The notes: generated by a model from the letters alone, not told the origin. Shown: positions 2,107-20,434, numbered from the stretch's first letter. The stretch is 32,000 bases of DNA from Coprobacillaceae bacterium (GCA_963675515.1 OY776328.1:420001-452000); one strand, 5' to 3'. Translations and numbers: made by a program.

Positions 2107-4775
2107 AAAGTAAGGTAAAACCTTTAGTAAATCTGAATACGAACCCTTGCAAGATGTGTATGCCGATGGGGGCGACTAACGCACTTTATGGGATCAAGGA
2201 ATGCATGACCATTCTCCATGGTTCCCAGGGGTGTGCGACCTACATTCGACGCCATATGGCTACCCATTACAATGAACCGATCGACATAGCTTCATCTTCA
2301 TTGACTGAAGAGGGTACTGTCTATGGCGGGCACAACAACCTTAAAAAAGGATTGCTGAACCTGATCAGCCTGTACCACCCCAAAGTTATCGGAATCATGA
2401 CAACATGTCTGGCTGAAACAATCGGAGAAGACATCGAAGGAATAACCGAAAGCTTCTATGAGGAAAATCCTCAGCATCGGGATATCACGATAATTCCGGT
2501 TCAAACACCGGGGTATTCGGGTACCCAGTATGAAGGTTACATGGCTGCGCTTTGTTCCGTCGCTGACAAACTGGATATGGATCTCACACCTAACGAAAAA
2601 GTTAATGTCATCCTGCCGCCACACAGCCCTGCCGATCTCCGTTTCATCAAACAGGAGTTCGCCCGGTTTGGAGTCGATGCCATCTTCCTTCCTGACAACT
2701 CCGACAACCTTGATGGCGGACATGAAAAACGCTATTCGAGATTGCCGCTGGGCGGGACACCGATCGAGGAACTGCGGAAAATGGCCGGTGCCCGGCTGAC
2801 TATCGAAATGACCGATGTTGATGGCAAGCTCTCGCCAGGCAAGGTCCTGAAAGAGAAATACGGGGTGGAGTACATCCAGATAAACAGCCCGATCGGTCTA
2901 AGAGCGATCGATAAGTTCTACAAGACACTCAAGGAGGTTTCCAAGAAGGAAATTCCTGCGGACATCCAGAAACAAAGAGACCGTTATCTTGACGGGATGA
3001 TCGATTCCCACAAGTACAATTCTGGCGGGAGAGCAGTCATCTTCGGGGAACCGGAATTTGTCATTTCGACAGTCAAGCTTTGCGAGGAAAACGGAATCAT
3101 GCCGGTCGTTGTCACTACCGGGAACGTGTTCCCGGAGCTGGACAAGTACGTAAGACCAACCCTGCAGTCGATGGCGAAAGGTTACTTCATCGATGAATTC
3201 ATCATCGCCGATGATGTCGATTTCAAGGAAATCGAGGAATTCGCGATCAAGACGGGAGCGAACCTGATGATCGGGAACTCGGATGGCAGAAGACTCGAGG
3301 AACATCTTGGGATTCCTTTGGTAAGACGGGCTTTCCCGATCCATGATCGAATCGGAGGCCAACGTTTGAGAACTCTTGGTTATGAAGGGAGTCTGACATA
3401 CCTGGATGATATCACCAATGCCATCCTGGCGCAGACCGAAACCGGGTTCAGGGAAGAAGCGTATGAAAAATATTACAAAGGGTCTGTGGCTCAACAGAAA
3501 AAACTAGCTAAAGAAGCCACAATCGCAACAAGCGTGGCCAAAGGAGAAGCGGTTATGAATGATATCGAAAAGAAAACCAAAGAACATCCGTGTTATACAT
3601 GCGGTGATCATAAATATGCAAGAATCCATCTGCCAGTTGCACCTTCTTGTAATGTCCAATGCAACTATTGCGTAAGAAAATTCGACTGCGTCAATGAAAG
3701 CCGGCCGGGAGTGACTTCTACAGTCCTTACTCCTGAACAGGCGTTCGATCGCTACAAAGCGGTCAAGGAAAAAATGCCTAACCTGACTGTTGTGGGAATC
3801 GCCGGGCCGGGAGATGCCTGCGGTGAAAGTTTCCCACAAGTCAAAAAGACACTGGAACTTATCCGCGAATATGACCCTGAAGTCACATTCTGTGTGTCGA
3901 CAAACGGGTTGATGCTCCCTCAAAGAGCCAATGATTTGATCGAGCTTGGAGTAAGCCATATTACTGTCACCATGAGTGCGGTAGATCCGGTTATTGCAGG
4001 TAAGATATATAAATATGTCAACTATATGGGTGAGAAATATGAAGGTACTCCAGCCGGTGCGATCATCCTATCAAACCAGCTGGCCGGGTTGCAGATGCTT
4101 ATCGACAAAGGCATTGTCTGCAAGGTCAATATCGTCACATTGAAAGGCATCAATGACCACCATATCAAAACCGTGGTTGAAAAATGCAAGGAGATGGGTA
4201 TCTTCATCACCAACATCATGCAGATGATTCCAGTCAAAGGAAGCGCCTTTGAAAACCTGCCGATGGTAAGCATGAAAGAAATCACGGAACTAAGAAAAGA
4301 ATGCGATACAATCCTGAAGCAGATGTATCATTGCAGACAATGTCGTGCCGATGCCGTAGGTACTCTCGACAATGATGTCTCAGTCGATCTCAAAGCCTTC
4401 TTTGAAGAAGAAAAGGCCAAAGAAGCAGCGGCTGCTGCGCCAGTAAAATTTGCAGTGGCTTCTAAGAGCGGAATCAATGTGGATCTCCACTTTGGCAAGG
4501 CAGCTGAATTCTACATTTACAATTTTGAAAAGGGTGAAATCAGATTTGTGGAAAAACGCAACGTTGACAAGTACTGCAGTGGCAATGACGAATGTGATGA
4601 TCATGACAGCAAAATTGCCAAGATCGTTTCGGCTATTGGGGATTGCAAAGTGGTCCTGGCGATGCGGATTGGCGAATCACCAAAAGAACTGTTGAGCGAA
4701 AAAGGAATCCGGGCGATTTCAACATTTGCGAATATCGAAACCGCAATCCAGGCGACTGCGACAAATCTAATCTAA
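2103..4775 (+). CDS. nifN-B: NifN-NifB fusion protein with a C-terminal NifX/NafY-like domain (clostridial NifN-B type)
   Basis: ATGA start/stop overlap with nifE. The N-terminal ~450 aa is NifN-like (ILHGSQGCATY, LMIGNS, PLVRRAFPIHDRIGG). The central part carries the radical-SAM motif CNVQCNYC (nt 3648-3671) within a NifB-like core (VVGIAGPGD, SHITVTM). The C-terminal ~110 aa (about nt 4440-4772; KFAVASKSGINVDLHFGKAAEFYIY ... GDCKVVLAMRIGESP) has the dinitrogenase FeMo-cofactor-binding (NifX/NifB-C) fold signature. Confidence 0.9.
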   Translation: MKSKVKPLVNLNTNPCKMCMPMGATNALYGIKECMTILHGSQGCATYIRRHMATHYNEPIDIASSSLTEEGTVYGGHNNLKKGLLNLISLYHPKVIGIMTTCLAETIGEDIEGITESFYEENPQHRDITIIPVQTPGYSGTQYEGYMAALCSVADKLDMDLTPNEKVNVILPPHSPADLRFIKQEFARFGVDAIFLPDNSDNLDGGHEKRYSRLPLGGTPIEELRKMAGARLTIEMTDVDGKLSPGKVLKEKYGVEYIQINSPIGLRAIDKFYKTLKEVSKKEIPADIQKQRDRYLDGMIDSHKYNSGGRAVIFGEPEFVISTVKLCEENGIMPVVVTTGNVFPELDKYVRPTLQSMAKGYFIDEFIIADDVDFKEIEEFAIKTGANLMIGNSDGRRLEEHLGIPLVRRAFPIHDRIGGQRLRTLGYEGSLTYLDDITNAILAQTETGFREEAYEKYYKGSVAQQKKLAKEATIATSVAKGEAVMNDIEKKTKEHPCYTCGDHKYARIHLPVAPSCNVQCNYCVRKFDCVNESRPGVTSTVLTPEQAFDRYKAVKEKMPNLTVVGIAGPGDACGESFPQVKKTLELIREYDPEVTFCVSTNGLMLPQRANDLIELGVSHITVTMSAVDPVIAGKIYKYVNYMGEKYEGTPAGAIILSNQLAGLQMLIDKGIVCKVNIVTLKGINDHHIKTVVEKCKEMGIFITNIMQMIPVKGSAFENLPMVSMKEITELRKECDTILKQMYHCRQCRADAVGTLDNDVSVDLKAFFEEEKAKEAAAAAPVKFAVASKSGINVDLHFGKAAEFYIYNFEKGEIRFVEKRNVDKYCSGNDECDDHDSKIAKIVSAIGDCKVVLAMRIGESPKELLSEKGIRAISTFANIETAIQATATNLI

Positions 4776-4790
4776 TAGGAGGATTGAACA

Positions 4791-5099
4791 ATGATTCAAC
4801 CAAAATATCATGTATTCATCTGTGCGAGCAGCAGAATTAACGGGCAACAAAGAGGGTATTGCCACCAACAGAAAAGCGTCAACCTTATCCAGTCATTCAT
4901 GCAGGAAATCGAGGATCGGGAACTAAGCGGTGATGTGATGATCACGAATACCGGATGCTTTGGCATCTGCGAAAAGGGACCGGTGGTAGTTGTCTATCCT
5001 GAGGGTGTCTGGTACGGAAATGTCAGCGAGGCTGACGTTGAAGAAATCTTCGATGAACATTTTGAAGGTGGGAAACCTGTAGAAAGACTGATGATCTAA
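4791..5099 (+). CDS. fdxA: Thioredoxin-like [2Fe-2S] ferredoxin (Clostridium pasteurianum 2Fe-Fd type)
   Basis: 102 aa with Cys at residues 11, 24, 56 and 60. This is the same length and ligand spacing known for the C. pasteurianum [2Fe-2S] ferredoxin, and the same position after nifN-B. SD AGGAGG lies upstream (about 4777-4782). Confidence 0.85.
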   Translation: MIQPKYHVFICASSRINGQQRGYCHQQKSVNLIQSFMQEIEDRELSGDVMITNTGCFGICEKGPVVVVYPEGVWYGNVSEADVEEIFDEHFEGGKPVERLMI

Positions 5100-5128
5100 A
5101 ATTAAAAAAATGTGATGGGGGTGGTTTT

Positions 5129-6109
5129 ATGGGATTCGTTATAGATGCCACATTGAGTGTGCTGGACGATTACAACCTTGGTAATGAGGATATTTGTGAA
5201 TTTATCGATCTTATCCGCAATCTTGGGATCAGGAACATCAAGATCTCATCAAAGATTCTTGGAGCAATTGAAGGGCAGTTGCCGGGTAATATCACCTATT
5301 ATATCGATTCGCTTGATAACGGTGTGACCGATTGCGATTCGCTGTCGAACAATATCCTCCGCTTTTCCCATCATGACACCATTTCAATCCACCACAACAT
5401 CCGCACCCGCGAAGTCAATGAAGTGATATTTGATCAGGATGGCTTCATATGTGATATGGTCCATCTCAAAGGTTTCGATTCATTGATACTCGATGGCAGT
5501 GAAGGCATTCTTGACCGGCTGGACCGAAGGATATCATATGAAAAACTGATTGTGACTCCCGGGGACAGCCATCGGTGCGCCAATGCGATCGCCTATCTGT
5601 TTTTACAAAGGGGTGTCCATGGGGTTATTACCACTTTGACCGGTGTTTCAAATCACGCATCGACCGAACAGGTAGTGATGGCCCGCCAGGTCATAGCAGG
5701 CTGTGACATCTATGATGTCTCTGTGTTTTCCAGACTGGCTGACTGGTTCGAGCGGGTGACTGCGGCTAAGATACCGCCTCACTTTCCGGTTTTGGGCAAA
5801 AGAATATTCCATGTCGAATCGGGGGTCCATGTCGATGGCATTCTCAAAAGGTCATCCAACTATGAACCATACAGTCCCAGTCTGGTCGGGCTCAAGCGGG
5901 AAATAGTGATTGGCAAACTGTCGGGAAGGGCATCCATCAATTACAAGTTGAGAATGCTTCTTGATCAGTCAAGATCGAAAAGCGATATTGATCTGATCCT
6001 TCAAAGGGTCAGGCAGCTTTCAATCGTTAAAAAGGGCAAGTTGACCGATGAGGACTTTGTCACTATCGTAAAGGAGTTGGATGTCTGTGAAGAATATAAA
6101 AATAGTTGA
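5129..6109 (+). CDS. nifV-omega: Homocitrate synthase omega subunit (NifV-omega): degenerate TIM-barrel plus conserved C-terminal segment
   Basis: The C-terminal part HVESGVHVDGILKRSSNYEPYSPSLVGLKREIVIGKLSGRAS aligns with the NifV/IPMS-family segment HEAGIHVDGLLK...YE...P..vG....lvlGKhSG. The N-terminal part resembles the barrel, but catalytic motifs are lost (VIDATLSVLDD instead of DxTLRDGxQ; no HxH). Gene order omega-alpha as in C. pasteurianum. Confidence 0.75.
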   Translation: MGFVIDATLSVLDDYNLGNEDICEFIDLIRNLGIRNIKISSKILGAIEGQLPGNITYYIDSLDNGVTDCDSLSNNILRFSHHDTISIHHNIRTREVNEVIFDQDGFICDMVHLKGFDSLILDGSEGILDRLDRRISYEKLIVTPGDSHRCANAIAYLFLQRGVHGVITTLTGVSNHASTEQVVMARQVIAGCDIYDVSVFSRLADWFERVTAAKIPPHFPVLGKRIFHVESGVHVDGILKRSSNYEPYSPSLVGLKREIVIGKLSGRASINYKLRMLLDQSRSKSDIDLILQRVRQLSIVKKGKLTDEDFVTIVKELDVCEEYKNS

Positions 6110-6884
6110 TTCAACCCTGCGTGATGGATTGCAGCAGCCGGGCATTCATCTCACAAACGAGCAGAAACTGAAAATCGCATTGCTTCTTGACAAGATGAAT
6201 GTTTATGAAATCGAGCTGGGCGTCTATGACTGGAATGGTGAAGACAGAGATTTCTATGAAACGCTAATGGAAGAAAAGAAGAATTCGAAAGTGTCACTTT
6301 GGTCGCGGCTGAACAAGACCGATGTGGAACAAACGTGTCTCCATCAACCCGACATCATCCATATCTCGATACCTGTTAGCGATATCCAGATAGCATCCAA
6401 AATGCATACCGACAAATCCTCTTTGGAAAAGCGGTTGCTGGAGTGCCTTGAAGTCGCCAATCAATACAAGATCGATGTCACACTGGGACTGGAAGACGCT
6501 TCCCGGGCCGAACTGGAATATCTTATCGATATTTCCAAACTGGCCAAACAAAACAATGTGAAGACAATCCGGCTGGCCGATACGGTTGGAGTGTACACAC
6601 CGGTGAGTGCTTTGGAGGCTATTGAAGCCATCAAGAAGGAAGTGGATATCGCCATTGAAGTGCACGAACACAATGACTTCGGGATGGCAATTGCCAACTC
6701 GATCACGATGCTCAACGGAGGGGCCGATTACATGGACTGCACATTGTTGGGGATCGGTGAAAGGACAGGCAATTGCGACCTCAGGGAATTCATAGAGGCT
6801 ACAAGAGATTACTATGATTCAAGAACCGATATCGGTGCCCTTGAAGAACTGGACGAATATATTAAAGAAATACTGATAGAATGA
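6081..6884 (+). CDS. nifV-alpha: Homocitrate synthase alpha subunit (NifV-alpha), catalytic HMGL-like barrel
   Basis: VDSTLRDGLQQPG, EVHEHNDFGMAIANS and LLGIGERTGNCDL are catalytic-barrel motifs of homocitrate / 2-isopropylmalate synthases. The protein stops where the NifV C-terminal domain would begin. It overlaps the nifV-omega stop. The start could be ATG 6081 or GTG 6087. Confidence 0.85.
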   Translation: MSVKNIKIVDSTLRDGLQQPGIHLTNEQKLKIALLLDKMNVYEIELGVYDWNGEDRDFYETLMEEKKNSKVSLWSRLNKTDVEQTCLHQPDIIHISIPVSDIQIASKMHTDKSSLEKRLLECLEVANQYKIDVTLGLEDASRAELEYLIDISKLAKQNNVKTIRLADTVGVYTPVSALEAIEAIKKEVDIAIEVHEHNDFGMAIANSITMLNGGADYMDCTLLGIGERTGNCDLREFIEATRDYYDSRTDIGALEELDEYIKEILIE

Positions 6885-6903: not shown

Positions 6904-7197
6904 GTGAATATGGAATCGAAAATTTTAAGACTCAAACCGGGCTATATTTTAAGGGAATTGGGCGGTGAGTTCTGCATATTTAATGAACTGGATAGTAATG
7001 CGGGATCACTTCTGGGATTGCCTTCGGTCAACGAGACATGCGCATTTCTCTGGAACCGGCTGGAAATCGGGGCCGTGAAGGAAGAGCTGGTCAAAGCGGT
7101 GATGATCGAATGCGACCTTGAAGAAGATGACGCCTTATATGAGGTTCATGAAGTGTTGGCAAAGCTGATTCATGGCCGGATTATTGAAACGGAGTAG
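6904..7197 (+). CDS. PqqD-family-like small protein (putative RiPP-recognition-element / peptide chaperone fold)
   Basis: 97 aa. The pattern LKPGYILRELGGEFCIF...SLLGLPSVNETCAFLWNRLE..VKEELVKAVMIECDLEEDDALYEVHEVLAKLIHGRII matches the PqqD layout (short beta strands, LNETaa..w, then D..eFl..L...gli). It starts 19 nt after the nifV-alpha stop. The start is ambiguous (GTG 6904 or ATG 6910) and the SD is weak. Confidence 0.6.
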   Translation: MNMESKILRLKPGYILRELGGEFCIFNELDSNAGSLLGLPSVNETCAFLWNRLEIGAVKEELVKAVMIECDLEEDDALYEVHEVLAKLIHGRIIETE

Positions 7198-7207
7198 GAG
7201 ATTAATT

Positions 7208-7837
7208 ATGAAGAAAATTGCTGTATTCTTGAATGAGGATAAGAAACTGGATAATTTTTACAATTGCAATACGATAATGATATACGGCGGAGGGGTGAGC
7301 GAGTGCCTGGTTCTTGACGAACAGGCATTTGACAAGATCACGCCGACATCAACCAGGGTGATAATCGACCAGACCGGCGACATATCAGAGAAAGTCGACG
7401 ACTGCAGCGCAATCGTATTTGGCGAAATCGCCGGGGTCGCATATTCCGTATTCGACAAAGCCAAATTCAAGATATTCACAATTGAAGAAAATTCTCCAGA
7501 TGCAATCATATCAATCTTCCGCGACTTGTTTGAGTTGGACAAGGAAATCGCCAAGAAAAAGGAAGCCCTTCTAGAACTCAAACCGCATGAAACAAGCGAA
7601 CCAGGCATCTATTATTTCGATCTGTTCACAGCCTTGCAGGACAATCCGGAAGTGTCTTCGAAAAAAATGTTGAAGGAATTTTTCGACAGTATTCCCTTTG
7701 TCATGCTGAAAATGAAAGTCAACCATATGCCACCATGGATTGAGCGCGATGGAAGATTCAATGTCGCATCGGATGAACAACAACCGATCCAAACTGTAGT
7801 TGTCACAAAGAAAAAATGTAATCAGGAGGACAGATAA
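7208..7837 (+). CDS. NifX/NafY-fold N-terminal domain protein, possibly AnfO family (nitrogenase accessory)
   Basis: SD TAGGAG (7195-7200) lies 7 nt before ATG 7208. The longer 7172 start merely overlaps the previous gene. MKKIAVFLNED...DDCSAIVFGEIAGVAYSVFDKAKFKIFTIE resembles the FeMo-cofactor-binding domain layout (MKIAv..., gC..vi...iG..a...L...gikv). Overall size (~209 aa) and nif context are reminiscent of AnfO. The family assignment is not verified. Confidence 0.55.
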   Translation: MKKIAVFLNEDKKLDNFYNCNTIMIYGGGVSECLVLDEQAFDKITPTSTRVIIDQTGDISEKVDDCSAIVFGEIAGVAYSVFDKAKFKIFTIEENSPDAIISIFRDLFELDKEIAKKKEALLELKPHETSEPGIYYFDLFTALQDNPEVSSKKMLKEFFDSIPFVMLKMKVNHMPPWIERDGRFNVASDEQQPIQTVVVTKKKCNQEDR

Positions 7838-8821
7838 ATGATGAACTATATGGTATTAGATGAAGAGCACATTCAAATGGAATTTGGAATTATCGGAGCT
7901 GTTACCTCGTTTCGAAAATATCCTTCGGGAGAACTGGAAAGTGTCAATGTCAGTGATATGAACATGGTGGTGACTCACGCTGGTGAGCTTATACCCGCCT
8001 ATACGACAACCGCCCGCAGAAAACAAAAACCCTCAATCACATTCAGCCGCAGCGGTCTGATCAAATCGGTCCATATGGAAGAACAGACTGAAATCGAAAC
8101 ACCGATCGGCACATTGCCTGCTGAATATGTGACCTTCTATGAAACCGGCGAAGTACACCGTGTATTTGTGACTGACGGACAAATCAGCGGCTTCTGGAGC
8201 GAGGAGGATGAGATGGAATATGTGATTCCTCTTACCTTTGAATTTGATTTCGCTAAATTCACCGCCCGGACAAACGGGATATGCTTCTATCGAAGCGGTG
8301 CGATAAAATCGATCACCCTCTATCCAGGAGAAGAAATAGAATTGCAGACTCCGGCTGGAAAGATGAAAACGAAAATCGGTTTCTCGCTCTATGAAAACGG
8401 GGAACTCGAATCGGTTGAGCCTAGCAGTGAAGTGCTGATCAACACACCGATTGGAATGTTTACGGCATCTGATTCGATGGCGGTGGGAGTGAATGCTGAC
8501 AAGAACTCGATCAAATTCAATGAATCAGGGGTGTTGGTTTCTTTCAAGACATCGGATCAAAGAGTCGTTGTCACAACTGACGAAGGAAGTTTCAAGATAT
8601 TCATGCCGGTTGAAGTGCCTCATCCGCTCCTGGATGATATGCCAATGCTGCTGCCAATGGAGATCAATTTCGACTTCAAAAAGGACACAGTCACCATCAA
8701 GACCGACAAAACCGGAGAATTCTCAATGGAAAAAGACAAGTTTGTCGTATCCCAACTGCCTAAAGACGGTCCGGGATGTTCGCCGGTTGATTGTGCGACA
8801 TGTTCAATCTGCAACAATTAA
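7838..8821 (+). CDS. Repeat protein (6-7 MORN/YwqK-like beta-hairpin repeats) with C-terminal CX4CX2CX2C tail; function unknown
   Basis: SD AGGAGG (7824-7829). The ATG immediately follows the previous stop. Repeated core [FY]-x-[SNT]-G-x-[LIV]-x-S-[VIF] occurs at residues 28, 69, 100, 150, 184 and 227 (YPSGELESV, FSRSGLIKSV, FYETGEVHRV, FYRSGAIKSI, LYENGELESV, FNESGVLVSF), often followed by ..TP[IA]G. The tail is GPGCSPVDCATCSICNN (Cys codons within 8777-8812). Confidence 0.7.
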   Translation: MMNYMVLDEEHIQMEFGIIGAVTSFRKYPSGELESVNVSDMNMVVTHAGELIPAYTTTARRKQKPSITFSRSGLIKSVHMEEQTEIETPIGTLPAEYVTFYETGEVHRVFVTDGQISGFWSEEDEMEYVIPLTFEFDFAKFTARTNGICFYRSGAIKSITLYPGEEIELQTPAGKMKTKIGFSLYENGELESVEPSSEVLINTPIGMFTASDSMAVGVNADKNSIKFNESGVLVSFKTSDQRVVVTTDEGSFKIFMPVEVPHPLLDDMPMLLPMEINFDFKKDTVTIKTDKTGEFSMEKDKFVVSQLPKDGPGCSPVDCATCSICNN

Positions 8822-8862
8822 TAAATAAATGCGCTGGAATTTTGATAATCCGGCAAGCTTTC

Positions 8863-8889
8863 AAAGGCGCATCCCTATGCGCTTTTTTT
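8863..8889 (+). terminator. Rho-independent terminator ending the nif maturation operon
   Basis: Stem GCGCAT (8867-8872) / ATGCGC (8877-8882), loop CCCT, followed by T7 (8883-8889). Confidence 0.8.
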
Positions 8890-8915
8890 GCGAATTGAGC
8901 ATGTTGTCCTGAACG

Positions 8916-8950
8916 CAAAAAAGGAAAGCTGTCATAGAAGCTGCTTTCCC
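8916..8950 (-). terminator. Rho-independent terminator of the regulator gene (minus strand)
   Basis: On the minus strand, GGAAAGC...GCTTTCC (plus coordinates 8923-8929 / 8944-8950) encloses the stop codon and is followed by TTTTTT (complement of A6 at 8917-8922). Confidence 0.6.
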
Positions 8951-9876
8951 ATATTTGTCACGTCGTATGCCTGCAGGGCGGAAACCTGTTCCTTGAATTC
9001 GTCGGACTGGATTATCCTGATCATCTGGGCGATTTCAGGACGCTTCAAGTCGCTTTTGCGCACCGCAAGATCGTATTGTTCCTGTTTTGCGAAGACGAAA
9101 TCGATATTGGGGAACTGGTTCGCGACACTTTTGGTTCCCCAGGCGCAATCGGCACCGCCCTTTGCGACCAGTGCGGCTGCTGCCAGGTGGGAGTTGACGG
9201 TTCGAGAATAACCGGCCACTTGCTCGTGCTCGATGCCCGTAGCCTTCATCAAAGAATCGGTAAGGACGCGGATACCGCTGCCTCTTTCCCGGTTCACCAT
9301 GATCACATCAGGGCGGGAAAGATCCTCGATGCCGATTATGTTTTTCGGATTGCCTTTTTTCACATATATCCCGACTGGCCGATTGGCGATATGGTAGAGA
9401 TTTATTTCCTCGCCAGGAAGCAGGCTTTTTATGAACGGAATATTGTAGGTGTCCGTTTCCATGTCCCATAGATGGGTTGTGGCCACGGTCACATTGCGTT
9501 TGTACATCGAATACAAGCCGTTGTAGCTTCCCTGATAAGACCTGATGAACTGGGTCCCATGCAATTGCTGGTTGACCGCCGAACAAAGCATGTCGATAAT
9601 CAGATCCTGCCCACAGACAATGATGTTTGTCGAAGAATCGGCGGCATCGGTCGTTGTCACATCCTGGTCGATAGTTGTTATGGCCTGCTCCAAAGGAGGT
9701 TTAGGACTGGTAGCGCCCGGATCCAAGAGGGCGTAAACATCGGATTCCCATATTCGAAATTGCTTGCCCACTTTGGTGGCCGGCAGTCTGTTTTTCTTGA
9801 TCATGTCATATATCGTATTCTGCCTTACTTTAAGGATGGCAGCCGCTTCCTTTGGCGATATCAGTTTTCTGTTCAT
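8932..9876 (-). CDS. Transcriptional regulator: excisionase/MerR-like HTH fused to a periplasmic-binding-protein-like (putative oxyanion/molybdate-sensing) domain
   Basis: The N-terminus ISPKEAAAILKVRQNTIYDMIKKNRLPATKVGKQFRIWESDV is a classic HTH_17/excisionase-type motif. The C-terminal ~230 aa has the PBP-like domain pattern found fused to HTH or MoeA in anaerobes. SD AGGAGAGG (complement of 9884-9891). Divergent from modABC. Confidence 0.7.
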   Translation of the reverse strand: MNRKLISPKEAAAILKVRQNTIYDMIKKNRLPATKVGKQFRIWESDVYALLDPGATSPKPPLEQAITTIDQDVTTTDAADSSTNIIVCGQDLIIDMLCSAVNQQLHGTQFIRSYQGSYNGLYSMYKRNVTVATTHLWDMETDTYNIPFIKSLLPGEEINLYHIANRPVGIYVKKGNPKNIIGIEDLSRPDVIMVNRERGSGIRVLTDSLMKATGIEHEQVAGYSRTVNSHLAAAALVAKGGADCAWGTKSVANQFPNIDFVFAKQEQYDLAVRKSDLKRPEIAQMIRIIQSDEFKEQVSALQAYDVTNMGKQLL

Positions 9877-9902
9877 AAGAGTTCCTCTCCTGCGTATTGG
9901 CT

Positions 9903-9908
9903 ATTATA
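9903..9908 (-). promoter_or_regulatory. Candidate -10 box (TATAAT on the minus strand) for the regulator gene
   Basis: The complement of ATTATA at 9903-9908 reads TATAAT, about 27 nt upstream of the start codon. Only a weak -35 (TTTGCT-like) is visible. Confidence 0.3.
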
Positions 9909-10015
9909 AGTATACCAAATCCAAAGCAAATACACTAGAAAAAAACACTAAACATAAAAAAACATAACAAACATGATAAAAACGTAATAAAACGCATTAA
10001 TAAATGAAAACAAAC

Positions 10016-10044
10016 TTGACAAAACATTATTATTGAGATAATAT
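10016..10044 (+). promoter_or_regulatory. Sigma-A-type promoter of modABC
   Basis: TTGACA (10016-10021), 17-nt spacer, TAATAT (10039-10044). Confidence 0.7.
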
Positions 10045-10092
10045 TGTCTTATCAACAAAGGGCTGTTCGGACTTCATTTATTTGTTGATAAG
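10037..10092. promoter_or_regulatory. Candidate operator region: GATAA-N7-TTATC palindrome over the -10 box, plus a perfect 12-bp inverted repeat
   Basis: GATAA (10037-10041), N7, TTATC (10049-10053). CTTATCAACAAA (10048-10059) and its exact reverse complement TTTGTTGATAAG (10081-10092) are separated by 21 nt. The 3' arm abuts the SD GGGGGAGGG. Confidence 0.55.
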
Positions 10093-10107
10093 GGGGAGGG
10101 TATTGCC

Positions 10108-10953
10108 ATGGAAAGAAATGTTTATGAATTGACGAGGTTTTACAAGGCTGTAAAAACAGTCAAGATGATTGGATTCTCATTTTTGATATTGTCGCTTGTC
10201 GGGTGTGGCCAGGCAACCGCAAATACAACAATCGAGCAGTTGACATTTGGCGATGTGGATACTGACAATGTGACAACTATCGCTTTGGGGAATTCTGATG
10301 TTCCGGTCGGGCAGTATTCACAGGAAATTTTCACAAATATGGGAGTGTGGGACAATATTCAATCAAAGATCTCTTATTGTTCGAATGTGAAAGACGTATT
10401 GTCGCAAGTTGAACAGGGGGCAGTCGACTGTGGGGTTGTTTACGCGACTGATGCGGCGACAAGCACTGGTGTGACGGTGGCTGATCTGGCGACCAGTGAG
10501 GAATTGCCTGTTGATGTGAGTTATCCGGTTGCGATAACTGCAAGTTCAACACAAAAGCAGGCGGCAGCGGTCTTCTTGAACTTCCTGCTGACTGACACAG
10601 CCAAAGCGGAATTCGAGAAAGTCGGATTCACAATGGACACAAACAAGACCAGCGAGGATATGGAATTCACAGATGACGTGACCCTGACCGTATTTGGCGC
10701 TGCAAGTCTGACCGAATCGCTGAGTGCCATCGAAACCGGGTTTGAGGAAGCTTATCCAAGCATCGATCTTGAAATAAATCTAAATTCCAGCGGGACCTTG
10801 AAAACCCAGATCGAACAAGGGGCTCAGGCTGATGTGTTCTTCTCAGCAGCCCAAAAACAGATGACCGGTCTGATCGAGGGTGGCTATATCGACGAGTCGA
10901 CCAAAATTGATTTGTTGGTAAATCGGGTCGTACTGATTGTACCTGCTCAATAA
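10108..10953 (+). CDS. modA: Molybdate ABC transporter substrate-binding lipoprotein, apparently circularly permuted ModA
   Basis: Strong SD GGGGGAGGG lies 7 nt upstream. Lipobox LSLVGC (Cys33). Residues ~57-176 (IALGNSDVPVGQY...NVKDVL...CGVVYATDA...YPVAI...KVGFT) align with the C-terminal half of canonical ModA. Residues ~191-281 (LTVFGAASLTESL...NLNSSGTL..QIEQGAQADVFFSA...NRVVLIVPA) align with its N-terminal half. Confidence 0.8.
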   Translation: MERNVYELTRFYKAVKTVKMIGFSFLILSLVGCGQATANTTIEQLTFGDVDTDNVTTIALGNSDVPVGQYSQEIFTNMGVWDNIQSKISYCSNVKDVLSQVEQGAVDCGVVYATDAATSTGVTVADLATSEELPVDVSYPVAITASSTQKQAAAVFLNFLLTDTAKAEFEKVGFTMDTNKTSEDMEFTDDVTLTVFGAASLTESLSAIETGFEEAYPSIDLEINLNSSGTLKTQIEQGAQADVFFSAAQKQMTGLIEGGYIDESTKIDLLVNRVVLIVPAQ

Positions 10954-10967
10954 AATAAGAAAGGGGA

Positions 10968-11645
10968 TTGGTGATTATGGACTATTTTCCGCTCTTCAAC
11001 TCAATCAGGATATCTTTGATAGCGACCGTAATCACCTTTTTCCTTGGTATCTTATGCGCATATTATATTGTGAAGTTGCCCCGGGTGATAAAGGGAGTTC
11101 TTGATACATTGCTTACCATTCCGATGGTGTTGCCCCCTACGGTAGTCGGTTTCATGATTCTGATAGTGATTTCGCCAAAAAGCGCCCTGGGCAAGCTGGT
11201 GGCAACTTACTTCAATACGACATTGACGATGAAATGGTACAGCGCGATCTTTGCGGTAGTGATGGTCACTTTTCCGCTGATGTATCGGACAGTGCGAAGT
11301 TCATTTGAATCGTTCGACCAGAATATTATCGCAAGTGCGAAAACATTGTGCCTGTCCAACACATACATTTTCTGGCATATCATCCTGCCAAACTGCAAGG
11401 AAGGCATTATCGCGGGAATCGTACTGGCCTTTGCGCGAGGTCTGGGGGAATACGGTGCTACGAGCATGGTGGCGGGCTATATCGCCGGAAAGACTTCTAC
11501 CATCGCCACGACAGTCGCTTATCTCTGGCAGACAAACCAGGACGGGGCGGCAATGAACTGGGTATTGATCAATCTTGCGATCTCGTTTGTGATCATGACT
11601 CTGGTCAATGTTTTTGAAAAGCAGGTCAGTATCGGAAGGAAGTGA
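10968..11645 (+). CDS. modB: Molybdate ABC transporter permease ModB
   Basis: Multi-TM protein with the EAA-loop region ASAKTLCLSNTYIFWHIILPNCKEGIIAGIVLAFARGLGEYGATSMVAG, typical of ModB/CysTW permeases. The start is likely ATG 10977 (SD AAAGGGGA at 10959-10966) rather than TTG 10968. Confidence 0.85.
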   Translation: MVIMDYFPLFNSIRISLIATVITFFLGILCAYYIVKLPRVIKGVLDTLLTIPMVLPPTVVGFMILIVISPKSALGKLVATYFNTTLTMKWYSAIFAVVMVTFPLMYRTVRSSFESFDQNIIASAKTLCLSNTYIFWHIILPNCKEGIIAGIVLAFARGLGEYGATSMVAGYIAGKTSTIATTVAYLWQTNQDGAAMNWVLINLAISFVIMTLVNVFEKQVSIGRK

Positions 11646-11649
11646 ATCA

Positions 11650-12717
11650 ATGTCTATCACATGCAGGATAAAAAAGAAACTGGGCAATTTCAATCTGGAC
11701 ATAGATTTTTCGGTTGACAGGGAAACTGTTGCATTGATCGGGGCTTCGGGATGTGGCAAAAGCGTTACTCTTAGATGCATTGCCGGGATTGAGACTCCCG
11801 ATGAGGGGCTGATCGTCATCAACGGGAAAGTGGTGTTCGACTCCAAAAGGAAAATCAACCTGGCACCTCAGAAAAGGAAAGTCGGTTACCTGTTCCAGGA
11901 TTATGCCCTTTTTCCCAATATGACAGTCGAAAGGAACATCAAAGCCGTGGTACCCAAGGGTGTTCCATATGATATCGATGAGATATTGGCCCGGTTTCAC
12001 CTTCTTGACCAGAAGGATCTGTATCCCCGGGAACTATCCGGGGGCCAGAAACAGCGCTGCGCCCTGGCCCGGATAATCGTGACCGACCCGGAAATAATCC
12101 TTTTGGACGAGCCGTTTTCCGCACTGGACAGTTATTTGCGCTGGCAGATGGAGCAGGAGGTCGTGTCGGTTATCCAACAGGCGAACAAACCTGCGATATT
12201 CGTATCCCATGACCGTGATGAGGTTTACCGGATCTCCGACAAAGTTGTTGTGGTCAATGAAGGAAAAAGTGACGAAATCCTGGAGAAACACATGCTCTAC
12301 CAGCATCCAAAGACATATGCGGATGCCCTGCTTACCGGATGCAAGAACATCTGCGAGGTTGAAATAAAGGGCGGCCATTTGCGAGCAAAAGACTTTGAAA
12401 TCACCATTCCTTATGATAAGATGAATGTGGGTGAAGCATTTCATCACGACAGGATACCGGCATCAATATCATATCTGGGAATAAGATCCAAGAAGATATT
12501 GCCTGCCCATCTGGCAGGTGGAGCTGGCGAAGTTGTCGTAATATCCTACGATATCGAAAGCGTAGCTGAGGGGTTATTTACCTATACACTGATGATCAGG
12601 CCTGAAAATGCGAAGAAAAGCATGTGCTGGGAAGTGTCGAAAGAAGTATATCGCAAACTTCAAGACCATCCCCGCAAAATCGCGATTCCGTTGAATGAAT
12701 GTTTATTGCTGGAATAA
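11650..12717 (+). CDS. modC: Molybdate ABC transporter ATP-binding protein ModC (with C-terminal TOBE-like region)
   Basis: SD GGAAGGAAG precedes ATG 11650. Walker A GASGCGKS, signature LSGGQKQR, Walker B ILLDEP, H-loop VSHD. The extra ~130-aa C-terminal domain is as in ModC/CysA. The 11608 start overlaps modB and is less likely. Confidence 0.85.
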   Translation: MSITCRIKKKLGNFNLDIDFSVDRETVALIGASGCGKSVTLRCIAGIETPDEGLIVINGKVVFDSKRKINLAPQKRKVGYLFQDYALFPNMTVERNIKAVVPKGVPYDIDEILARFHLLDQKDLYPRELSGGQKQRCALARIIVTDPEIILLDEPFSALDSYLRWQMEQEVVSVIQQANKPAIFVSHDRDEVYRISDKVVVVNEGKSDEILEKHMLYQHPKTYADALLTGCKNICEVEIKGGHLRAKDFEITIPYDKMNVGEAFHHDRIPASISYLGIRSKKILPAHLAGGAGEVVVISYDIESVAEGLFTYTLMIRPENAKKSMCWEVSKEVYRKLQDHPRKIAIPLNECLLLE

Positions 12718-12809
12718 TTAAACTCATCTTGAACCTTCCAAATTAAAGACGGTTTTTCCTGATAACAAACATAGGCTAATCTAAGTTGTAATAGTTAAAT
12801 ATATAGATC

Positions 12810-12838
12810 TTACAATAGAATCGCTCTTATTGTATGAT
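12810..12838 (+). promoter_or_regulatory. Near-consensus orphan promoter downstream of modC
   Basis: TTACAA (12810-12815), 17-nt spacer, TATGAT (12833-12838). Confidence 0.45.
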
Positions 12839-12844
12839 CAGTTC

Positions 12845-12965
12845 AATAAATCACTTTGTCTCTTTCTTTGTGGTTTATTCCATTGGGATGCTGCAACCAC
12901 TGATTTTGCAGTTCCCAGAACAAAAAGGCCGCACCGGACTCCAAATGGGTTTGGTGCGGTTTTTT
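12845..12965 (+). ncRNA. Candidate ~120-nt small RNA (three hairpins; the last is an intrinsic terminator)
   Basis: Hairpin 1: AAUAAAUCAC (12845-12854) pairs with GUGGUUUAUU (12870-12879), with one G-U pair, around a U/C-rich loop UUUGUCUCUUUCUUU. Hairpin 2: GGGAUGCUGCAA...UUGCAGUUCCC. Hairpin 3: CCGCACC (12929-12935) / GGUGCGG (12953-12959) plus U6. There is no SD-preceded ORF. Confidence 0.35.
12929..12965 (+). terminator. Rho-independent terminator (ends the candidate sRNA and/or the mod operon)
   Basis: 7-bp GC-rich stem CCGCACC/GGTGCGG, 17-nt loop, T6 (12960-12965). The upstream A-run gives weak bidirectional potential. Confidence 0.7.
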
Positions 12966-13190
12966 AGGTGTGCCGGGCATGGCCATAATTTCCGGATATG
13001 ATCGCAATGGAGTTGATTGTGAAGGGATTGTCCGGTACGTTATGGAAAATGGGAGTGCTTATGTTAAGTTTGGGCAACGAACTTTACCTGAAATTAACGC
13101 AATATGACTGTTTTTATGCGAGTTTATGTAACCACAAATCCGATAAATGGGCAAATAAATTATAATGACTCAAAAAATATATATTTTTCT

Positions 13191-13219
13191 TTACAATTTC
13201 ATTTTTGTGCCATTATAAT
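13191..13219 (+). promoter_or_regulatory. Promoter of the Na/Pi cotransporter gene
   Basis: TTACAA (13191-13196), 17-nt spacer, TATAAT (13214-13219). SD GGAGAG lies before ATG 13242. Confidence 0.6.
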
Positions 13220-13241
13220 GTACGGGTAGGAGAGTGATTAT

Positions 13242-14882
13242 ATGACTTTAGGACAAATTGACTGGCCGTTGATTCTCGGTGGTCTGGGACTATTCCTGTT
13301 CGGGATCGATTATATGGGCAATGGCTTGAAATCATTTGCCGGAGACGGTTTGAAAGACATAATTGACCGGTATACCAAAACCCCGTTTCATGGAATAATT
13401 GTAGGTACATTAATTACCTGTCTGATTCAATCATCATCAGGGACAACCGCCCTGACAATCGGATTGATCAGGTCGGGTCTGATGACTTTTCCCCAGGCAA
13501 TCGGGGTCATCATGGGGGCGAATATCGGGACAACAATCACGGCTTTCATCGTCGGATTGAAAATTTCGGAATATGCAGTATACTTCATAATTTTGGGGGC
13601 TGTGCTGATCATGTTCTCGTCAAGAAAAAGAATGAAGTATTTTGGGCAGATCCTATTTGGATTTGGGTGTCTGTTCTATGGTCTGGATCTGATGGGAGAC
13701 AACCTCAAACTCATATCGAAAGTCCCTGAGTTCACCCAGGCGACTGAAGTGCTTTCGGCCAATCCGCTGCTGGCATTGTTTGGTGGGACAGTGATGACGA
13801 TGGCGATTCAGTCATCATCAGCGGTTATCGCGATTGTCCAACAGATGTACGGCGTGGGCGCAATAACGCTGTCGATATCGTTGCCTTTCTTGTTCGGATC
13901 GAATATCGGGACAACAATCACAGCTATACTGGCTGCCTTTGGGGGTTCGACATCCTCAAAACGGGCCGCAACATATCATGTCATCTTCAATGTCTTTGGA
14001 ACGGTGCTGTTCATGTGCCTGCTGGCGCCATTCACAATGCTTGTTGTGAATTTGAGCCAATCGTTGCAGACGACTCCGGAGATGTCGCTGGCGATGGCCC
14101 ATGGGATCTTCAACATCACGACAACAGCCCTGATGTACCCGCTGATCCATACCAATGAAAAGCTGATCAAGAAACTGATCAAGAAAAAATCTTATGAGGT
14201 CGAGGTCGACCTGTCGACACTTGATGAAGATGTTGTGGGATTGTTCCCGGAAGCTTCATTGAATCTGGCGATCGAGCAGACGACAAAGATGGGGGCGTTG
14301 ACCTGCGAGCTGATATCGAGCGCGAAGGCATATTTCGATTCTGGAGTTCAGTCGAAAGCTGATTCCTGTCAGGAACTTGAAAATGCGATCAATATCATGG
14401 AAAAGAAACTTACCGTCTACCTGGCAAATATTCCTCATGAGAAGTTCGACGAACACACGGCAATTATGTACATCAATTCAAGCAAAATAATAAAGGATTT
14501 TGAACTTATCGCCGATCTTGGCGTGCGCCTTGTTTCCCTTTTTGAACAGATGAAGGATTCAAATGAGAACATGCACGAAAAGACCCGCGAAGAAATCGGT
14601 GAGCTGATGGCAATCGCGGTTGACCTGATTGACAAGACCTATATGGTTTACAAGGAATACAGCTATGATCTGGCTGAGGAAGTTGATGCGGGCGAATCGC
14701 TGCTTGATATCAAATATCATGAATTCAAAGACGCCCATGTCCACCGCGTCTTGAACAAGCAAGAACGGACCAATGTGATCAACTCGTTGTATGATGATAC
14801 CGCGAGTCTGATTGAAAGAATTGGCGACTATTGTCAGTCAATCAGTGAGAACGTTGCAAATATCAAAGGTGAATTAGTCTAA
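13242..14882 (+). CDS. Na+/phosphate cotransporter family protein with PhoU-like C-terminal domain
   Basis: Duplicated Na/Pi-cotransporter repeats (QSSSGTTALTIGL... and QSSSAVIAIVQ...GSNIGTTITA). A ~200-aa soluble helical C-terminus resembles the PhoU-like domains of NptA/YjbB-type proteins. Confidence 0.85.
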   Translation: MTLGQIDWPLILGGLGLFLFGIDYMGNGLKSFAGDGLKDIIDRYTKTPFHGIIVGTLITCLIQSSSGTTALTIGLIRSGLMTFPQAIGVIMGANIGTTITAFIVGLKISEYAVYFIILGAVLIMFSSRKRMKYFGQILFGFGCLFYGLDLMGDNLKLISKVPEFTQATEVLSANPLLALFGGTVMTMAIQSSSAVIAIVQQMYGVGAITLSISLPFLFGSNIGTTITAILAAFGGSTSSKRAATYHVIFNVFGTVLFMCLLAPFTMLVVNLSQSLQTTPEMSLAMAHGIFNITTTALMYPLIHTNEKLIKKLIKKKSYEVEVDLSTLDEDVVGLFPEASLNLAIEQTTKMGALTCELISSAKAYFDSGVQSKADSCQELENAINIMEKKLTVYLANIPHEKFDEHTAIMYINSSKIIKDFELIADLGVRLVSLFEQMKDSNENMHEKTREEIGELMAIAVDLIDKTYMVYKEYSYDLAEEVDAGESLLDIKYHEFKDAHVHRVLNKQERTNVINSLYDDTASLIERIGDYCQSISENVANIKGELV

Positions 14883-16259: not shown

Positions 16260-16490
16260 TAATATATGGACCTCCAACCTAAATATGCCCATACAATACC
16301 ACTTTTAAACACAAATTACAAGATTAATTGTGCATTTTTAGGAATTGTTAAAATAATAGTTGATAATTTATTATTTATAAAAAAATGTGTGGATTTGGTG
16401 GCTGATTATCGGGTTTTTCCGGATTTCAGCCGGCAATATTTTGGGTTGGTTTATTGCGATTAAATGTGTATAATGAAAAAGGTGATAGAA

Positions 16491-17303: not shown

Positions 17304-17735
17304 GTGACAGTGTTGAAAACAGTAAAATCATACAACATTCCCTACTCGCTGTTTGTGAATCTGGCAGTCACATTCGCCCCGGCCCTGGCTGCAAATCTTG
17401 GGGTCATCATGGCCTACTACCGGATATCACTGGCAGCTGGACTGGGAAGATTGTTTCTTGAAAACATATATACAACCGGCTACTTCATCTTGCTGTGGCT
17501 GATGAATTTCGTCATTTTCGAGGCGGTGGGGGAAATTTTCGAACAAGTCCCTGAGATAAGATACATTGAAAGATCAGGCCACCGCATTCTTTCAATCCTG
17601 CCACTTGGCGCGATCCTGATTGGCTTTTTGTTGGCAATGAGCATCCCGATCCTGTTCAAGTCAAACTTTATCATCCTGATCGCCGGCGAAATGCTGTATG
17701 TCTGGATGAAAGAAAAATATGGAGGAGGACATTGA
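17304..17735 (+). CDS. Hypothetical integral membrane protein (about 4 TM helices)
   Basis: SD AGGAGGTG (17299-17306). The true start is probably GTG 17310 or TTG 17313. Hydrophobic segments are consistent with 4 TM helices. It is translationally coupled to its neighbours. Confidence 0.55.
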   Translation: MTVLKTVKSYNIPYSLFVNLAVTFAPALAANLGVIMAYYRISLAAGLGRLFLENIYTTGYFILLWLMNFVIFEAVGEIFEQVPEIRYIERSGHRILSILPLGAILIGFLLAMSIPILFKSNFIILIAGEMLYVWMKEKYGGGH

Positions 17736-20433: not shown

Positions 20434-20434
20434 G

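Follow-up and report, generated by a model that had tools for sequence, protein, structure and literature searches.

A conserved gene pair encoding an AnfO-family protein and a Cys-tailed beta-repeat protein beside Mo-nitrogenase genes: a candidate module for cofactor handling

Downstream of nifV-alpha in a Coprobacillaceae bacterium, the conserved unit is a pair of genes, ORF2 and ORF3, rather than the trio of ORFs present there, and the two products are tentatively read as a two-protein module handling the nitrogenase active-site cofactor for Mo-nitrogenase. The window, i.e. the whole stretch of DNA analysed, comprises 32,000 nucleotides (GCA_963675515.1 OY776328.1:420001-452000). No literature on the ORF2-ORF3 pair was found, and published nif gene tables leave these genes out, for example that of C. 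butyricum (PMC12342839).

Gene layout and upstream nif genes

The upstream nif cofactor genes (745-6884, + strand) were assigned by profile matches as nifE (TIGR01283, 610 bits, cut-off 505), a nifN-B fusion, a 2Fe-2S ferredoxin gene (fdxn_Clost, 173 bits, cut-off 150), nifV-omega and nifV-alpha, the last of which ends at 6884. The nifB domain of the fusion reached 428 bits against TIGR01290 (cut-off 344) and the C-terminal domain of the fusion is NifX-like, while the nifV genes showed HCS_D2 and HMGL-like domains. ORF1, ORF2 and ORF3 follow nifV-alpha in the same direction (+ strand) with gaps of 19, 10 and 0 nt. The Shine-Dalgarno sequence of ORF1 is weak, and those of the other two, read from the sequence, are AGGAG for ORF2 (7196-7200, 7 nt ahead of the ATG) and AGGAGG for ORF3 (7824-7829, 8 nt ahead of the ATG).

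An intrinsic terminator closing the nif...ORF3 unit is predicted at 8863-8889 (+ strand) by the minimum-free-energy fold of 8822-8900, with a 10-bp stem (8863-8872/8877-8886), a 4-nt loop and a subsequent U-run; it was overlooked by a consensus scanner because the stem takes up part of the T-run. Other terminator-like matches on the + strand from nifE to ORF3 were weak and at shuffle level (14 vs 11.5 +/- 3.7 in shuffles). Co-transcription of the unit up to ORF3 is predicted from this gene layout and the terminator. The gaps, the good Shine-Dalgarno sequences of the last two ORFs and the position of the only strong terminator of the block had all been given in an earlier, sequence-only reading of this DNA, and all were recovered here. 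In an Rfam scan of the window, no riboswitch was found near the module or modA, and the sole match was a T-box before pheS.

Judging from conservation, all three ORFs are real genes, since ORF3 has more than 346 homologues and, among related loci, ORF1 is kept in 36/83 and ORF2 in 78/83.

Conservation of the ORF2-ORF3 pair

Conservation was counted in a survey of 83 related loci in which neighbours were scored within 10 kb. In 78 of them an AnfO-like gene lies directly upstream of ORF3 and co-directional with it, the distance between the two ranging mostly from -30 to +37 nt, and in the remaining 5 no AnfO-like gene was detectable. The earlier description of a three-gene unit is not maintained, as the PqqD-like gene occurs in just the 36 loci mentioned above. 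The suggested co-localisation with nif cofactor genes, on the other hand, was borne out, nifE/nifN-B being found within 10 kb of the pair in about 72 loci.

Three placements of the pair were observed, namely at the end of a nif operon, divergent from nifH, and right after modABC, and the arrangement recurs in loci L085-L087 and in C. butyricum. The pair was found in Lachnospiraceae, Oscillospiraceae, Clostridium butyricum, Sporolactobacillus, Ruminiclostridium, termite-gut Treponema and Fibrobacteria, and its association with nif or mod genes spans Bacillota, Fibrobacterota, Spirochaetota and a Coriobacteriales MAG. In addition, natural single-chain fusions of AnfO_nitrog and ORF3 of 497-536 aa were identified (P0168, P0230, P0279, P0162). 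In the window, the TAA that ends ORF2 is followed immediately, and in frame, by the start codon of ORF3 (7835-7840, + strand; GAC AGA TAA ATG ATG), and translation of 7208-8818 in one frame gives exactly one stop, indicating that a single stop codon parts what is one polypeptide in some organisms.

ORF2, an AnfO-family protein

ORF2 (7208-7837, + strand) encodes a two-domain protein of 209 aa that matches AnfO_nitrog (PF09582) with 105.4 bits (cut-off 30.3, E 3e-30), residues 3-181 aligning with positions 1-176 of the 190-position profile. In the AF2 model (pLDDT 92.9), a long helix (97-122) links an N-domain (residues ~1-96) to a C-domain (~126-205). The predicted fold of the N-domain is NifX/NafY-like, with Foldseek matches over ~112 residues to NifX (9ian_F, E 3e-6) and the NafY core (1p90, E 7e-5) at a sequence identity of only 16-17%. 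These results agree with the NifX/AnfO-like character that had been proposed for the second ORF. The accompanying claim that no canonical nif gene is among the three ORFs is correct only in part, as ORF2 carries the RefSeq name 'Fe-only nitrogenase accessory AnfO family protein'.

AnfO of A. vinelandii is a fidelity factor of Fe-only nitrogenase (PMC9310841, PMC11938142), in which the apo-FeFe protein is recognised by the N-domain, whereas FeMo-co and FeV-co are bound by the C-domain, with an essential His203 located in Cys201-x-His203 (PMC11938142). NafY parallels AnfO in its division of labour, apo-NifDK being bound by one domain and FeMo-co, through a His ligand, by the other (PMC11938142). 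ORF2 resembles AnfO in belonging to PF09582 over both domains, in the order of NifX-like N-domain, linker and C-domain, the last with a conserved His that may correspond to that of AnfO, and in being directly followed by a gene of unknown function, as is anfO. However, ORF2 scored 63.3 bits against the AnfO equivalog TIGR02940 and did not reach the cut-off of 129.15, so that its activity may differ from that of AnfO. Further differences are the linker, predicted as a long helix in ORF2 and glycine-rich in AnfO, the near-invariant C-terminal Cys204 of ORF2, and the 327-aa beta-repeat protein as partner. With regard to the NafY/NifY/NifX proteins, ORF2 shares the fold of the N-domain and lacks a NafY-type N-domain, and the NifX-like domain of AnfO binds protein, not cofactor.

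The C-domain of ORF2 contains an invariant H173-x-P-P-W motif, and His173 (codon CAT, 7724-7726, + strand) is invariant in 18/18 and 27/27 aligned AnfO-like proteins. Most AnfO-like homologues have a Cys two residues before this His, and because this CxH resembles Cys201-x-His203 of AnfO, His173 is a candidate equivalent of the cofactor-binding His203.

Judged by locus neighbours, ORF2 and its homologues are encoded next to nifE, nifN-B and nifV of Mo-nitrogenase (in the window and about 72 of the 83 loci) or next to modABC and not, as AnfO, with anfHDGK. When ORF2 or a profile of 18 AnfO-like sequences was used in word-indexed homologue searches, the nif-linked clade alone was returned, and a tblastn search of plasmids for an AnfO-like gene returned C. 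butyricum only, where the neighbours of the pair are annotated nifH-D-K-E-B. The divergent AnfO-like matches P0132, P0140 and P0141 were again found in Mo-nif clusters. The alternative offered in the sequence-only reading, that a Mo-nitrogenase cluster has taken in a module of the anfO type, is a good fit for ORF2.

ORF3, a beta-repeat protein with a Cys tail

ORF3 (7838-8821, + strand) encodes a protein of 327 aa, for which no sequence relative was found in Pfam (even at E <= 10), NCBIfam or the PDB. Its AF2 model (pLDDT 89.3, pTM 0.82) predicts an all-beta hairpin-repeat protein of ~30 strands with no match among PDB folds at E <= 1e-3, and six [FY]xxxGx[LIV]x[SR][VIF] repeats were recognised. 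A distant likeness to MORN-variant (MORN_2/YwqK-like) repeats is seen in the ~30-residue beta-hairpin units and the [FY]xxxGx[LIV] signature, and 15/81 ORF3 homologues match MORN_2 (PF07661; best E 1.3e-7), whereas ORF3 of the window does not, and the Cys tail and the partnership with AnfO are specific to the ORF3 clade. The nearest relative is a Coprobacillaceae MAG (L073), whose ORF3 shows 78% identity.

The C-terminal motif C314-SPVD-C319-AT-C322-SI-C325 (Cx4Cx2Cx2C; 8777-8812, + strand) lies in a tail that is predicted to be disordered (pLDDT <50, AF2) and is a putative thiolate, Fe-S or metal-binding site. Together with the six repeats it matches the Cys-tailed repeat protein noted earlier. 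In an 81-sequence alignment the invariant cysteines are C319 and C322, with C314 near-invariant (>=90%) and C325 falling below 90%; in another alignment C314, C319 and C322 are invariant and C325 is near-invariant. A four-Cys motif is present in 74 of the 83 loci, and a further 5 loci have three Cys; the spacing is Cx4Cx2Cx2C (x3 in some) and, in distant relatives and fusions, Cx2Cx2Cx2C. A multi-Cys tail is lacking in ~44% of the best 150 ORF3-family representatives, and the C. butyricum homologue contains no cysteine at all, indicating that the tail is not essential everywhere.

The position of ORF3 immediately downstream of an AnfO-family gene is that of anfR in A. vinelandii, and anfO and anfR have been suggested to act in the same process (PMC9310841); the likeness is one of gene position, and none of the ORF3 homologues bears the name AnfR in any source. 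High-GC-looking ORF3 relatives with 1-2 conserved Cys were considered as proteobacterial AnfR and rejected, as their 80 metagenome loci have no AnfO, nif or modAB neighbours.

The ORF3 fold also has a sister clade with an HI0933-like flavoprotein, YdbH, DUF1318 and a HlyD/FtsX/ABC system as neighbours and no nif, mod or AnfO genes, indicating that the fold itself is not nitrogenase-specific. This clade, and the weak induction of the pair in C. butyricum described below, would be expected if the genes were hitchhikers unrelated to nitrogenase, e.g. encoding a generic protein-binding beta-repeat protein, that are kept by chance or shared regulation. Such an origin is highly improbable, as the nif/mod association persists over the three gene arrangements and several phyla, the partner ORF2 comes from a nitrogenase-specific family, and the fusions tie ORF3 to AnfO_nitrog.

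ORF1, a lineage-specific PqqD-like protein

ORF1 (6910-7197 from an ATG, alternative GTG start at 6904; + strand) encodes a PqqD-family (RRE-type) protein of 95 aa, which matches PF05402 with 27.4 bits (cut-off 23.4, E 4e-6), in agreement with the PqqD-like assignment made earlier. NCBIfam gave faint matches alone, to lasso-peptide PqqD chaperones and ScmD. Homologues of ORF1 are 95-104 aa long and, with one exception, lie between nifV-alpha and the AnfO-like gene; within nitrogenase operons they occur only in Lachnospiraceae-type clusters and in the lineage of the window. The 47 loci missing the PqqD-like gene keep the ORF2-ORF3 pair and mostly the Cys tail as well. From this distribution, ORF1 is regarded as a lineage-specific addition to the module.

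PqqD-type domains are peptide-recognition partners of radical-SAM maturases, and ORF1 is a stand-alone domain of ~95 aa, as are PqqD and the lasso-peptide chaperones. A RiPP-like maturation was therefore considered, in which the PqqD-like protein would present the ORF3 tail to the radical-SAM NifB domain, or to another radical-SAM enzyme, for loading or modification. Such a role would suit the family match of ORF1 above the Pfam threshold, the flexible Cys-rich C-terminal peptide of ORF3, the radical-SAM NifB domain encoded in the cluster and the four-Cys tail found in every intact PqqD-positive locus. It is nevertheless very unlikely, given that the pair persists without the PqqD-like gene and that ORF1 reaches no more than 15.6 bits against the specific PqqD-chaperone models of NCBIfam (cut-offs 70-100). 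Furthermore, no SPASM-type (SPASM/twitch) maturase or separate precursor peptide gene was found beside ORF1, which unlike typical RiPP recognition elements lies within a nitrogenase operon, flanked by nifV-alpha (19 nt) and the AnfO-like gene (10 nt); the sole radical-SAM domain is that of NifB in NifN-B, for which we know of no use of an RRE. The scheme of tail recognition by the PqqD-like protein and loading by NifB, as put forward in the sequence-only reading, is accordingly not general.

Molybdenum linkage and expression in C. butyricum

A convergent gene after the terminator (8932-9876, - strand) encodes an HTH_17 plus PBP_like regulator of the YvgK type (PF12727, 204 bits; PF12728, 44 bits), predicted to be molybdate-responsive, and is followed by a modA-modB-modC-type ABC transporter (10108-12717, + strand; SBP_bac_11, BPD_transp_1, ABC_tran), so that in the window the pair sits before the Mo regulator and then modABC. 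Across the survey, modB was found within 10 kb of the pair in 20/83 loci and immediately before it in Ruminiclostridium, Treponema and Fibrobacteria loci. The pair lies directly behind modABC or next to it in Ruminiclostridium, Family XIII, Syntrophomonadaceae, Treponema, Fibrobacteria, Oscillospiraceae and C. butyricum; in the Treponema and Fibrobacteria loci no related gene other than modABC was seen within 10 kb.

In C. butyricum, a regulator gene joins the AnfO-like gene and the ORF3 homologue in a single co-directional unit, which contains a 4-nt overlap and is oriented divergently from modABC, and this regulator, directly after the ORF3 homologue, shows 32% identity (E 2e-63) to that of the window. 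The homologous pair was not significantly induced there (log2 fold change +1.3 and +1.6), while in the same comparison nif genes rose by log2 +5 to +9 and mod genes by +4.7 to +5.9 (together 30- to 400-fold). This counts against the sequence-only reading, which had named a lack of induction under nitrogen limitation as a refutation.

A unit shared with the regulator and expressed independently of the strong nif/mod induction could point to a regulatory or sensing role, in which the pair would report cofactor or Mo status to the YvgK-type regulator and tune nif and mod instead of taking part in assembly. A homologous regulator also adjoins the pair in the window and in loci L005, L007, L009, L010, L015, L050 and L053. 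However, the regulator was found within 10 kb in only 7 of the 83 surveyed loci, most pairs are located inside or beside structural nif operons, and the AnfO family binds cofactor and is without a DNA-binding or signalling domain (PMC11938142), which makes this role decidedly unlikely.

The proximity to modABC also bears on a role in Mo donation. NifQ is the Mo donor for FeMo-co and carries a [Mo-Fe3-S4] group (PMC11605450), and its Cx4Cx2Cx5C sequence has been reported as the Mo-binding region (PMC4417242). Both NifQ and ORF3 are linked to nif and have four C-terminal Cys, the ORF3 tail (Cx4Cx2Cx2C) resembling the NifQ motif in spacing. ORF3 could accordingly be a functional analogue of NifQ, on whose tail a Mo-Fe-S or thiomolybdate-type centre would be built and from which Mo would pass to NifEN/NifH, with ORF2 as docking or cluster-holding partner, in anaerobes that are not known to have NifQ. 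This function is rather unlikely, as ORF3 has a beta-repeat body and no match to NifQ in Pfam or NCBIfam at E <= 10, the exact Cx4Cx2Cx5C motif was not found, and the spacing of the tail varies and includes three-Cys forms. Moreover, C. butyricum, which fixes N2 with Mo, lacks the tail, and its pair is not co-induced with modABC. A more specific version, in which the ORF3 tail beside the His pocket of ORF2 would form a new Mo-Fe-S or thiomolybdate hand-over site, is unlikely; if true, the pair would be the missing Mo-insertion or cofactor-completion factor of anaerobic diazotrophs in which NifQ, NafY and free NifX are lacking.

Proposed mechanism

The best reading of the pair is a cofactor-sorting or escort module for Mo-nitrogenase that is tied to Mo supply, and ORF2 and ORF3 may well help to select the metal cluster that is inserted into nitrogenase. 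An accessory role in nitrogenase metallocluster handling, as the earlier reading had supposed, is favoured by the nif neighbours and by the AnfO-family membership of ORF2, because AnfO, the characterised member of this family, interacts with apo-dinitrogenase and traps FeMo-co/FeV-co (PMC11938142).

If ORF2 works as AnfO does, its NifX-like N-domain would dock on cofactor-less NifDK, or possibly on NifEN, and its C-domain would hold a cofactor-type Fe-S cluster via the invariant His173. ORF3, fused to ORF2 in some organisms, would otherwise bind it, its body serving as a rigid beta-solenoid platform and its flexible Cys tail ligating, by thiolates, either the bound cluster or a small Fe-S/Mo-S centre. 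As a net effect, clusters would be captured or escorted, be it by delivery or by sequestration, and NifDK would receive finished FeMo-co only. The effect would be most important under fluctuating Mo supply, and this would account for the repeated linkage to modABC and the molybdate-type regulator. ORF1 would act as a lineage-specific adaptor, whose most likely target is a flexible peptide stretch in one of the partners.

Significance

Clostridia-type diazotrophs are not known to have NifQ, NafY/NifY or free NifX, the proteobacterial helpers of Mo delivery and FeMo-co insertion. A biochemical function was assigned to AnfO as recently as 2022-2025, and it concerns solely the protection of the Fe-only enzyme; new here is an AnfO paralogue with a Cys-tailed, sometimes fused partner that is widespread beside Mo-nitrogenase and molybdate-transport genes. 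The pair is therefore a concrete, directly testable two-gene candidate, and it is relevant to minimal gene sets for nitrogenase engineering.

Organization of the nif operon and its downstream genes

The first 9 kb of the window are a Mo-nitrogenase cofactor operon of the clostridial type, which starts with the 3' end of nifK and includes nifE (TIGR01283, 610 bits, exceeding the cut-off), a nifN-B fusion (2103-4775, + strand), a Clostridium-type 2Fe-2S ferredoxin gene, and nifV-omega and nifV-alpha, encoding a split homocitrate synthase. On the same strand, nifV-alpha is followed by ORF1 (PqqD-like, 6904/6910-7197), ORF2 (AnfO-like, 7208-7837) and ORF3 (Cys-tailed β-repeat protein, 7838-8821) after gaps of 19, 10 and 0 nt, the last two with good Shine-Dalgarno sequences. 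ORF2 and ORF3 share a reading frame, with a single TAA between them (7835-7840). No convincing terminator was found between nifE and ORF3 by the consensus scanner, and folding of 8822-8900 revealed a hairpin at 8863-8886 (10-bp stem, then a U-run), which the scanner overlooked because the stem uses up part of the T-tract. Sequence and folding thus bear out the coordinates, spacing, Shine-Dalgarno sites and terminator described in the sequence-only reading.

Downstream of ORF3 are a convergent gene encoding an HTH_17 + PBP_like regulator and modABC-type transporter genes. The remainder of the window is housekeeping, including a Na/Pi transporter, aspartokinase, pheST with a T-box, pyruvate kinase and others. 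Upstream of pheS/pheT (19396-22822), the T-box leader spans 19162-19362 (+; Rfam RF00230, 104 bits), and two adjacent ORFs with no Pfam match (16464-17300 and 17304-17735, +; 278 and 143 aa) are upstream of a YgjP-like metallopeptidase gene.

Conservation of the ORF2-ORF3 pair

At 90% clustering, the homologues of ORF3 number more than 346. Neighbours were surveyed by six-frame phmmer/hmmsearch in 83 loci, obtained by scanning a single genome of each species and adding three look-ups. An AnfO-like gene was immediately upstream of ORF3 and co-directional in 78 of the 83 and undetectable in 5; nifE/nifN-B-type genes were within 10 kb in approximately 72 loci, and modB in 20. The PqqD-like gene was present in only 36 (Lacrimispora, other Lachnospiraceae-type clusters and the lineage of the window). 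Of the proposed nif-associated trio, the ORF2-ORF3 adjacency and the nif linkage therefore stand, but ORF1 is not a regular member.

The pair remains intact in three arrangements: closing the nif operon (the window, Lachnospiraceae, Sporolactobacillus), as a separate unit running divergently from nifH (Oscillospiraceae, Sporobacter), and directly after modABC (Ruminiclostridium cellobioparum, Family XIII, Syntrophomonadaceae, Treponema, Fibrobacteria). No nif genes were found within 10 kb of the pair in the Treponema and Fibrobacteria loci. Mere hitchhiking of ORF2 and ORF3 with their neighbours is considered very unlikely. An exhaustive profile search for the ORF3 family (461 representatives at 50% identity) also recovered single-chain AnfO_nitrog::ORF3 fusions (proteins P0168, P0230, P0279 and P0162; 497-536 aa), composed of an AnfO_nitrog domain, the β-repeat body and a Cx2Cx2Cx2C tail, with CxH kept.

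In the Sporolactobacillus-type loci L001, L002 and L087 (~9300-14600), a pyruvate:ferredoxin oxidoreductase gene (1191-1194 aa) directly follows the ORF3 homologue, joined in two of them by a small 2x[4Fe-4S] ferredoxin gene; by analogy with nifJ, these would be a nif-linked electron supply.

ORF1 (95 aa) scored just above the gathering score of PqqD PF05402 (27.4 versus 23.4 bits) and matched none of the specific PqqD-chaperone models; its homologues have a core typical of PqqD-like proteins, ...NETCIFLW...EEDA..E..EFLAKL. It is thus a PqqD-family domain without the customary RiPP partners. That 47 of the 83 loci lack the PqqD-like gene weakens the earlier suggestion of RiPP-like loading, with the ORF3 tail recognized by ORF1 and loaded by NifB; this model is now very unlikely.

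In Lacrimispora-type nif clusters, an additional 464-aa gene lies between nifV-alpha and the PqqD-like gene (L014:7672-9066; L043:7973-9367; 30 loci in all); it is not found in the window. By phmmer against PDB (E 8e-37 to 1e-29), its product is a diverged paralogue of GroEL/Hsp60; it has no Pfam match at E <= 1e-3 and may be a nif-dedicated chaperonin, since the PqqD-like gene accompanies it in 29 of the 30 loci.

Features of ORF2 and ORF3

ORF2 (209 aa) matched AnfO_nitrog across both domains (E 3e-30) but missed the AnfO equivalog cut-off (63 versus 129 bits), which places it in the Pfam family but outside the equivalog. Unlike AnfO, the Azotobacter vinelandii Fe-only nitrogenase factor, it is not encoded with anfHDGK. 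In its confident AF2 model (pLDDT 92.9), the ~112 N-terminal residues superpose on NifX of the NifEN-NifX complex (E 3e-6) and on the NafY core (E 7e-5), in agreement with the description of AnfO (PMC11938142). The H173-x-P-P-W motif is invariant in ORF2 alignments, usually with a Cys two residues earlier, and a C-terminal Cys is near-invariant. In AnfO, the essential cofactor-binding residue is His203, beside Cys201 (PMC11938142), and His173 is a plausible candidate equivalent.

ORF3 (327 aa) is a member of no described family, with no relatives by sequence in Pfam, NCBIfam or PDB and no Foldseek match in PDB at E <= 1e-3. Its confident AF2 model (pLDDT 89, pTM 0.82) is all-β with hairpin repeats and a disordered stretch of 17 residues at the end; six [FY]xxxGx[LIV] repeats are present, and MORN_2 was touched by 15 of 81 homologues. 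In the tail (CSPVDCATCSICNN), C319 and C322 are invariant in alignments of 15 and 81 sequences, C314 is invariant in the former and near-invariant (>=90%) in the latter, and C325 reaches near-invariance only among the 15 sequences. Four Cys occur in the tail in 74 of the 83 loci and three in 5 more, and the Fibrobacteria version (260 aa) has lost residues ~236-300 and kept the tail. A multi-Cys tail is carried by only ~56% of the 150 best family representatives. Some relatives (L078:1157-2113; P0288, P0192, P0210) carry much longer Cys/Gly-rich tails, e.g., CGGCESCGDCGGC and GGCSGGSCSGGGCSGGC, indicating that tail length and Cys count evolve quickly while the β-repeat body is conserved.

A sister clade, sampled in 80 metagenome loci (L088-L167), has two other invariant Cys, of which one is internal and the second lies 1-3 residues before the C-terminus. 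Its neighbours encode an HI0933-like flavoprotein (convergent and downstream in 43 of 80 loci), YdbH and DUF1318 (upstream in 20-26 of 80) and an HlyD/FtsX/ABC system. No AnfO, nif or modAB neighbours were found in these loci, indicating that the ORF3 fold is generic and that the nitrogenase link is a property of the AnfO-partnered clade.

The pair in Clostridium butyricum

In C. butyricum, the pair is located on the chromid between modABC and nifH (L084, NZ_CP039706.1, 14361-16883), in one unit with a YvgK-type molybdate regulator gene whose product is 32% identical to the regulator of the window. In RefSeq, ORF2 carries the name 'Fe-only nitrogenase accessory AnfO family protein' and ORF3 is entered as a 'hypothetical protein'; both are missing from the published nif gene table (PMC12342839). 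A regulatory role together with the YvgK-type regulator is quite unlikely. In published RNA-seq (Table S5 of PMC4342158), nif genes (log2 fold change +5 to +9) and modABC (+4.7 to +5.9) rose significantly by adjusted p, whereas the AnfO-like gene (+1.3, adjusted p 0.58) and the ORF3 homologue (+1.6, adjusted p 0.45) did not. The expected co-induction with nif was thus not seen, and this single set of expression data speaks against a simple co-regulation of the pair with nif.

The C. butyricum ORF3 homologue contains zero cysteines. A NifQ-like Mo donor could be imagined from the similarity of the tail to Cx4Cx2Cx5C, but there is no homology to NifQ and C. butyricum does without the tail, making this role unlikely.

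Proposed role

AnfO is the sole family member with biochemistry: it attaches through its N-domain to dinitrogenase that lacks cofactor, and its C-domain traps FeMo-co or FeV-co in free form via His203, a two-domain logic that parallels NafY (PMC11938142). Extrapolating from AnfO, ORF2 would dock on apo-NifDK, possibly NifEN, and hold a cofactor-type cluster, while ORF3, its obligate or fused partner, would add a rigid platform and flexible thiolate ligands. Judged from context, ORF2 and ORF3 could in general terms be a cofactor-handling module controlling which cluster enters NifDK, a decision taken jointly, and we hold this tentatively, at slightly under even confidence. It may act by either delivery (NafY-like) or sequestration (AnfO-like). 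Such selection would be most important under limiting Mo, which is the proposed reason for the mod linkage.

In A. vinelandii, anfO and anfR are adjacent (PMC9310841), and ORF2-ORF3 mirrors this in gene position. Full-text literature searches found no paper dealing with the ORF3 family or with genes of the AnfO family located in Mo-only nif clusters. Since a terminal NifX-like domain is fused with NifN and NifB (radical SAM) in the 890-aa NifN-B, the organism of the window has no free NifX, which bears on what ORF2, through its NifX-like N-domain, might stand in for. We infer that the pair is a cofactor-handling module of the AnfO type that includes a new partner and was recruited to loci for Mo-nitrogenase and molybdate transport. 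It is widespread and testable, and relevant to Mo and FeMo-co trafficking in anaerobes.
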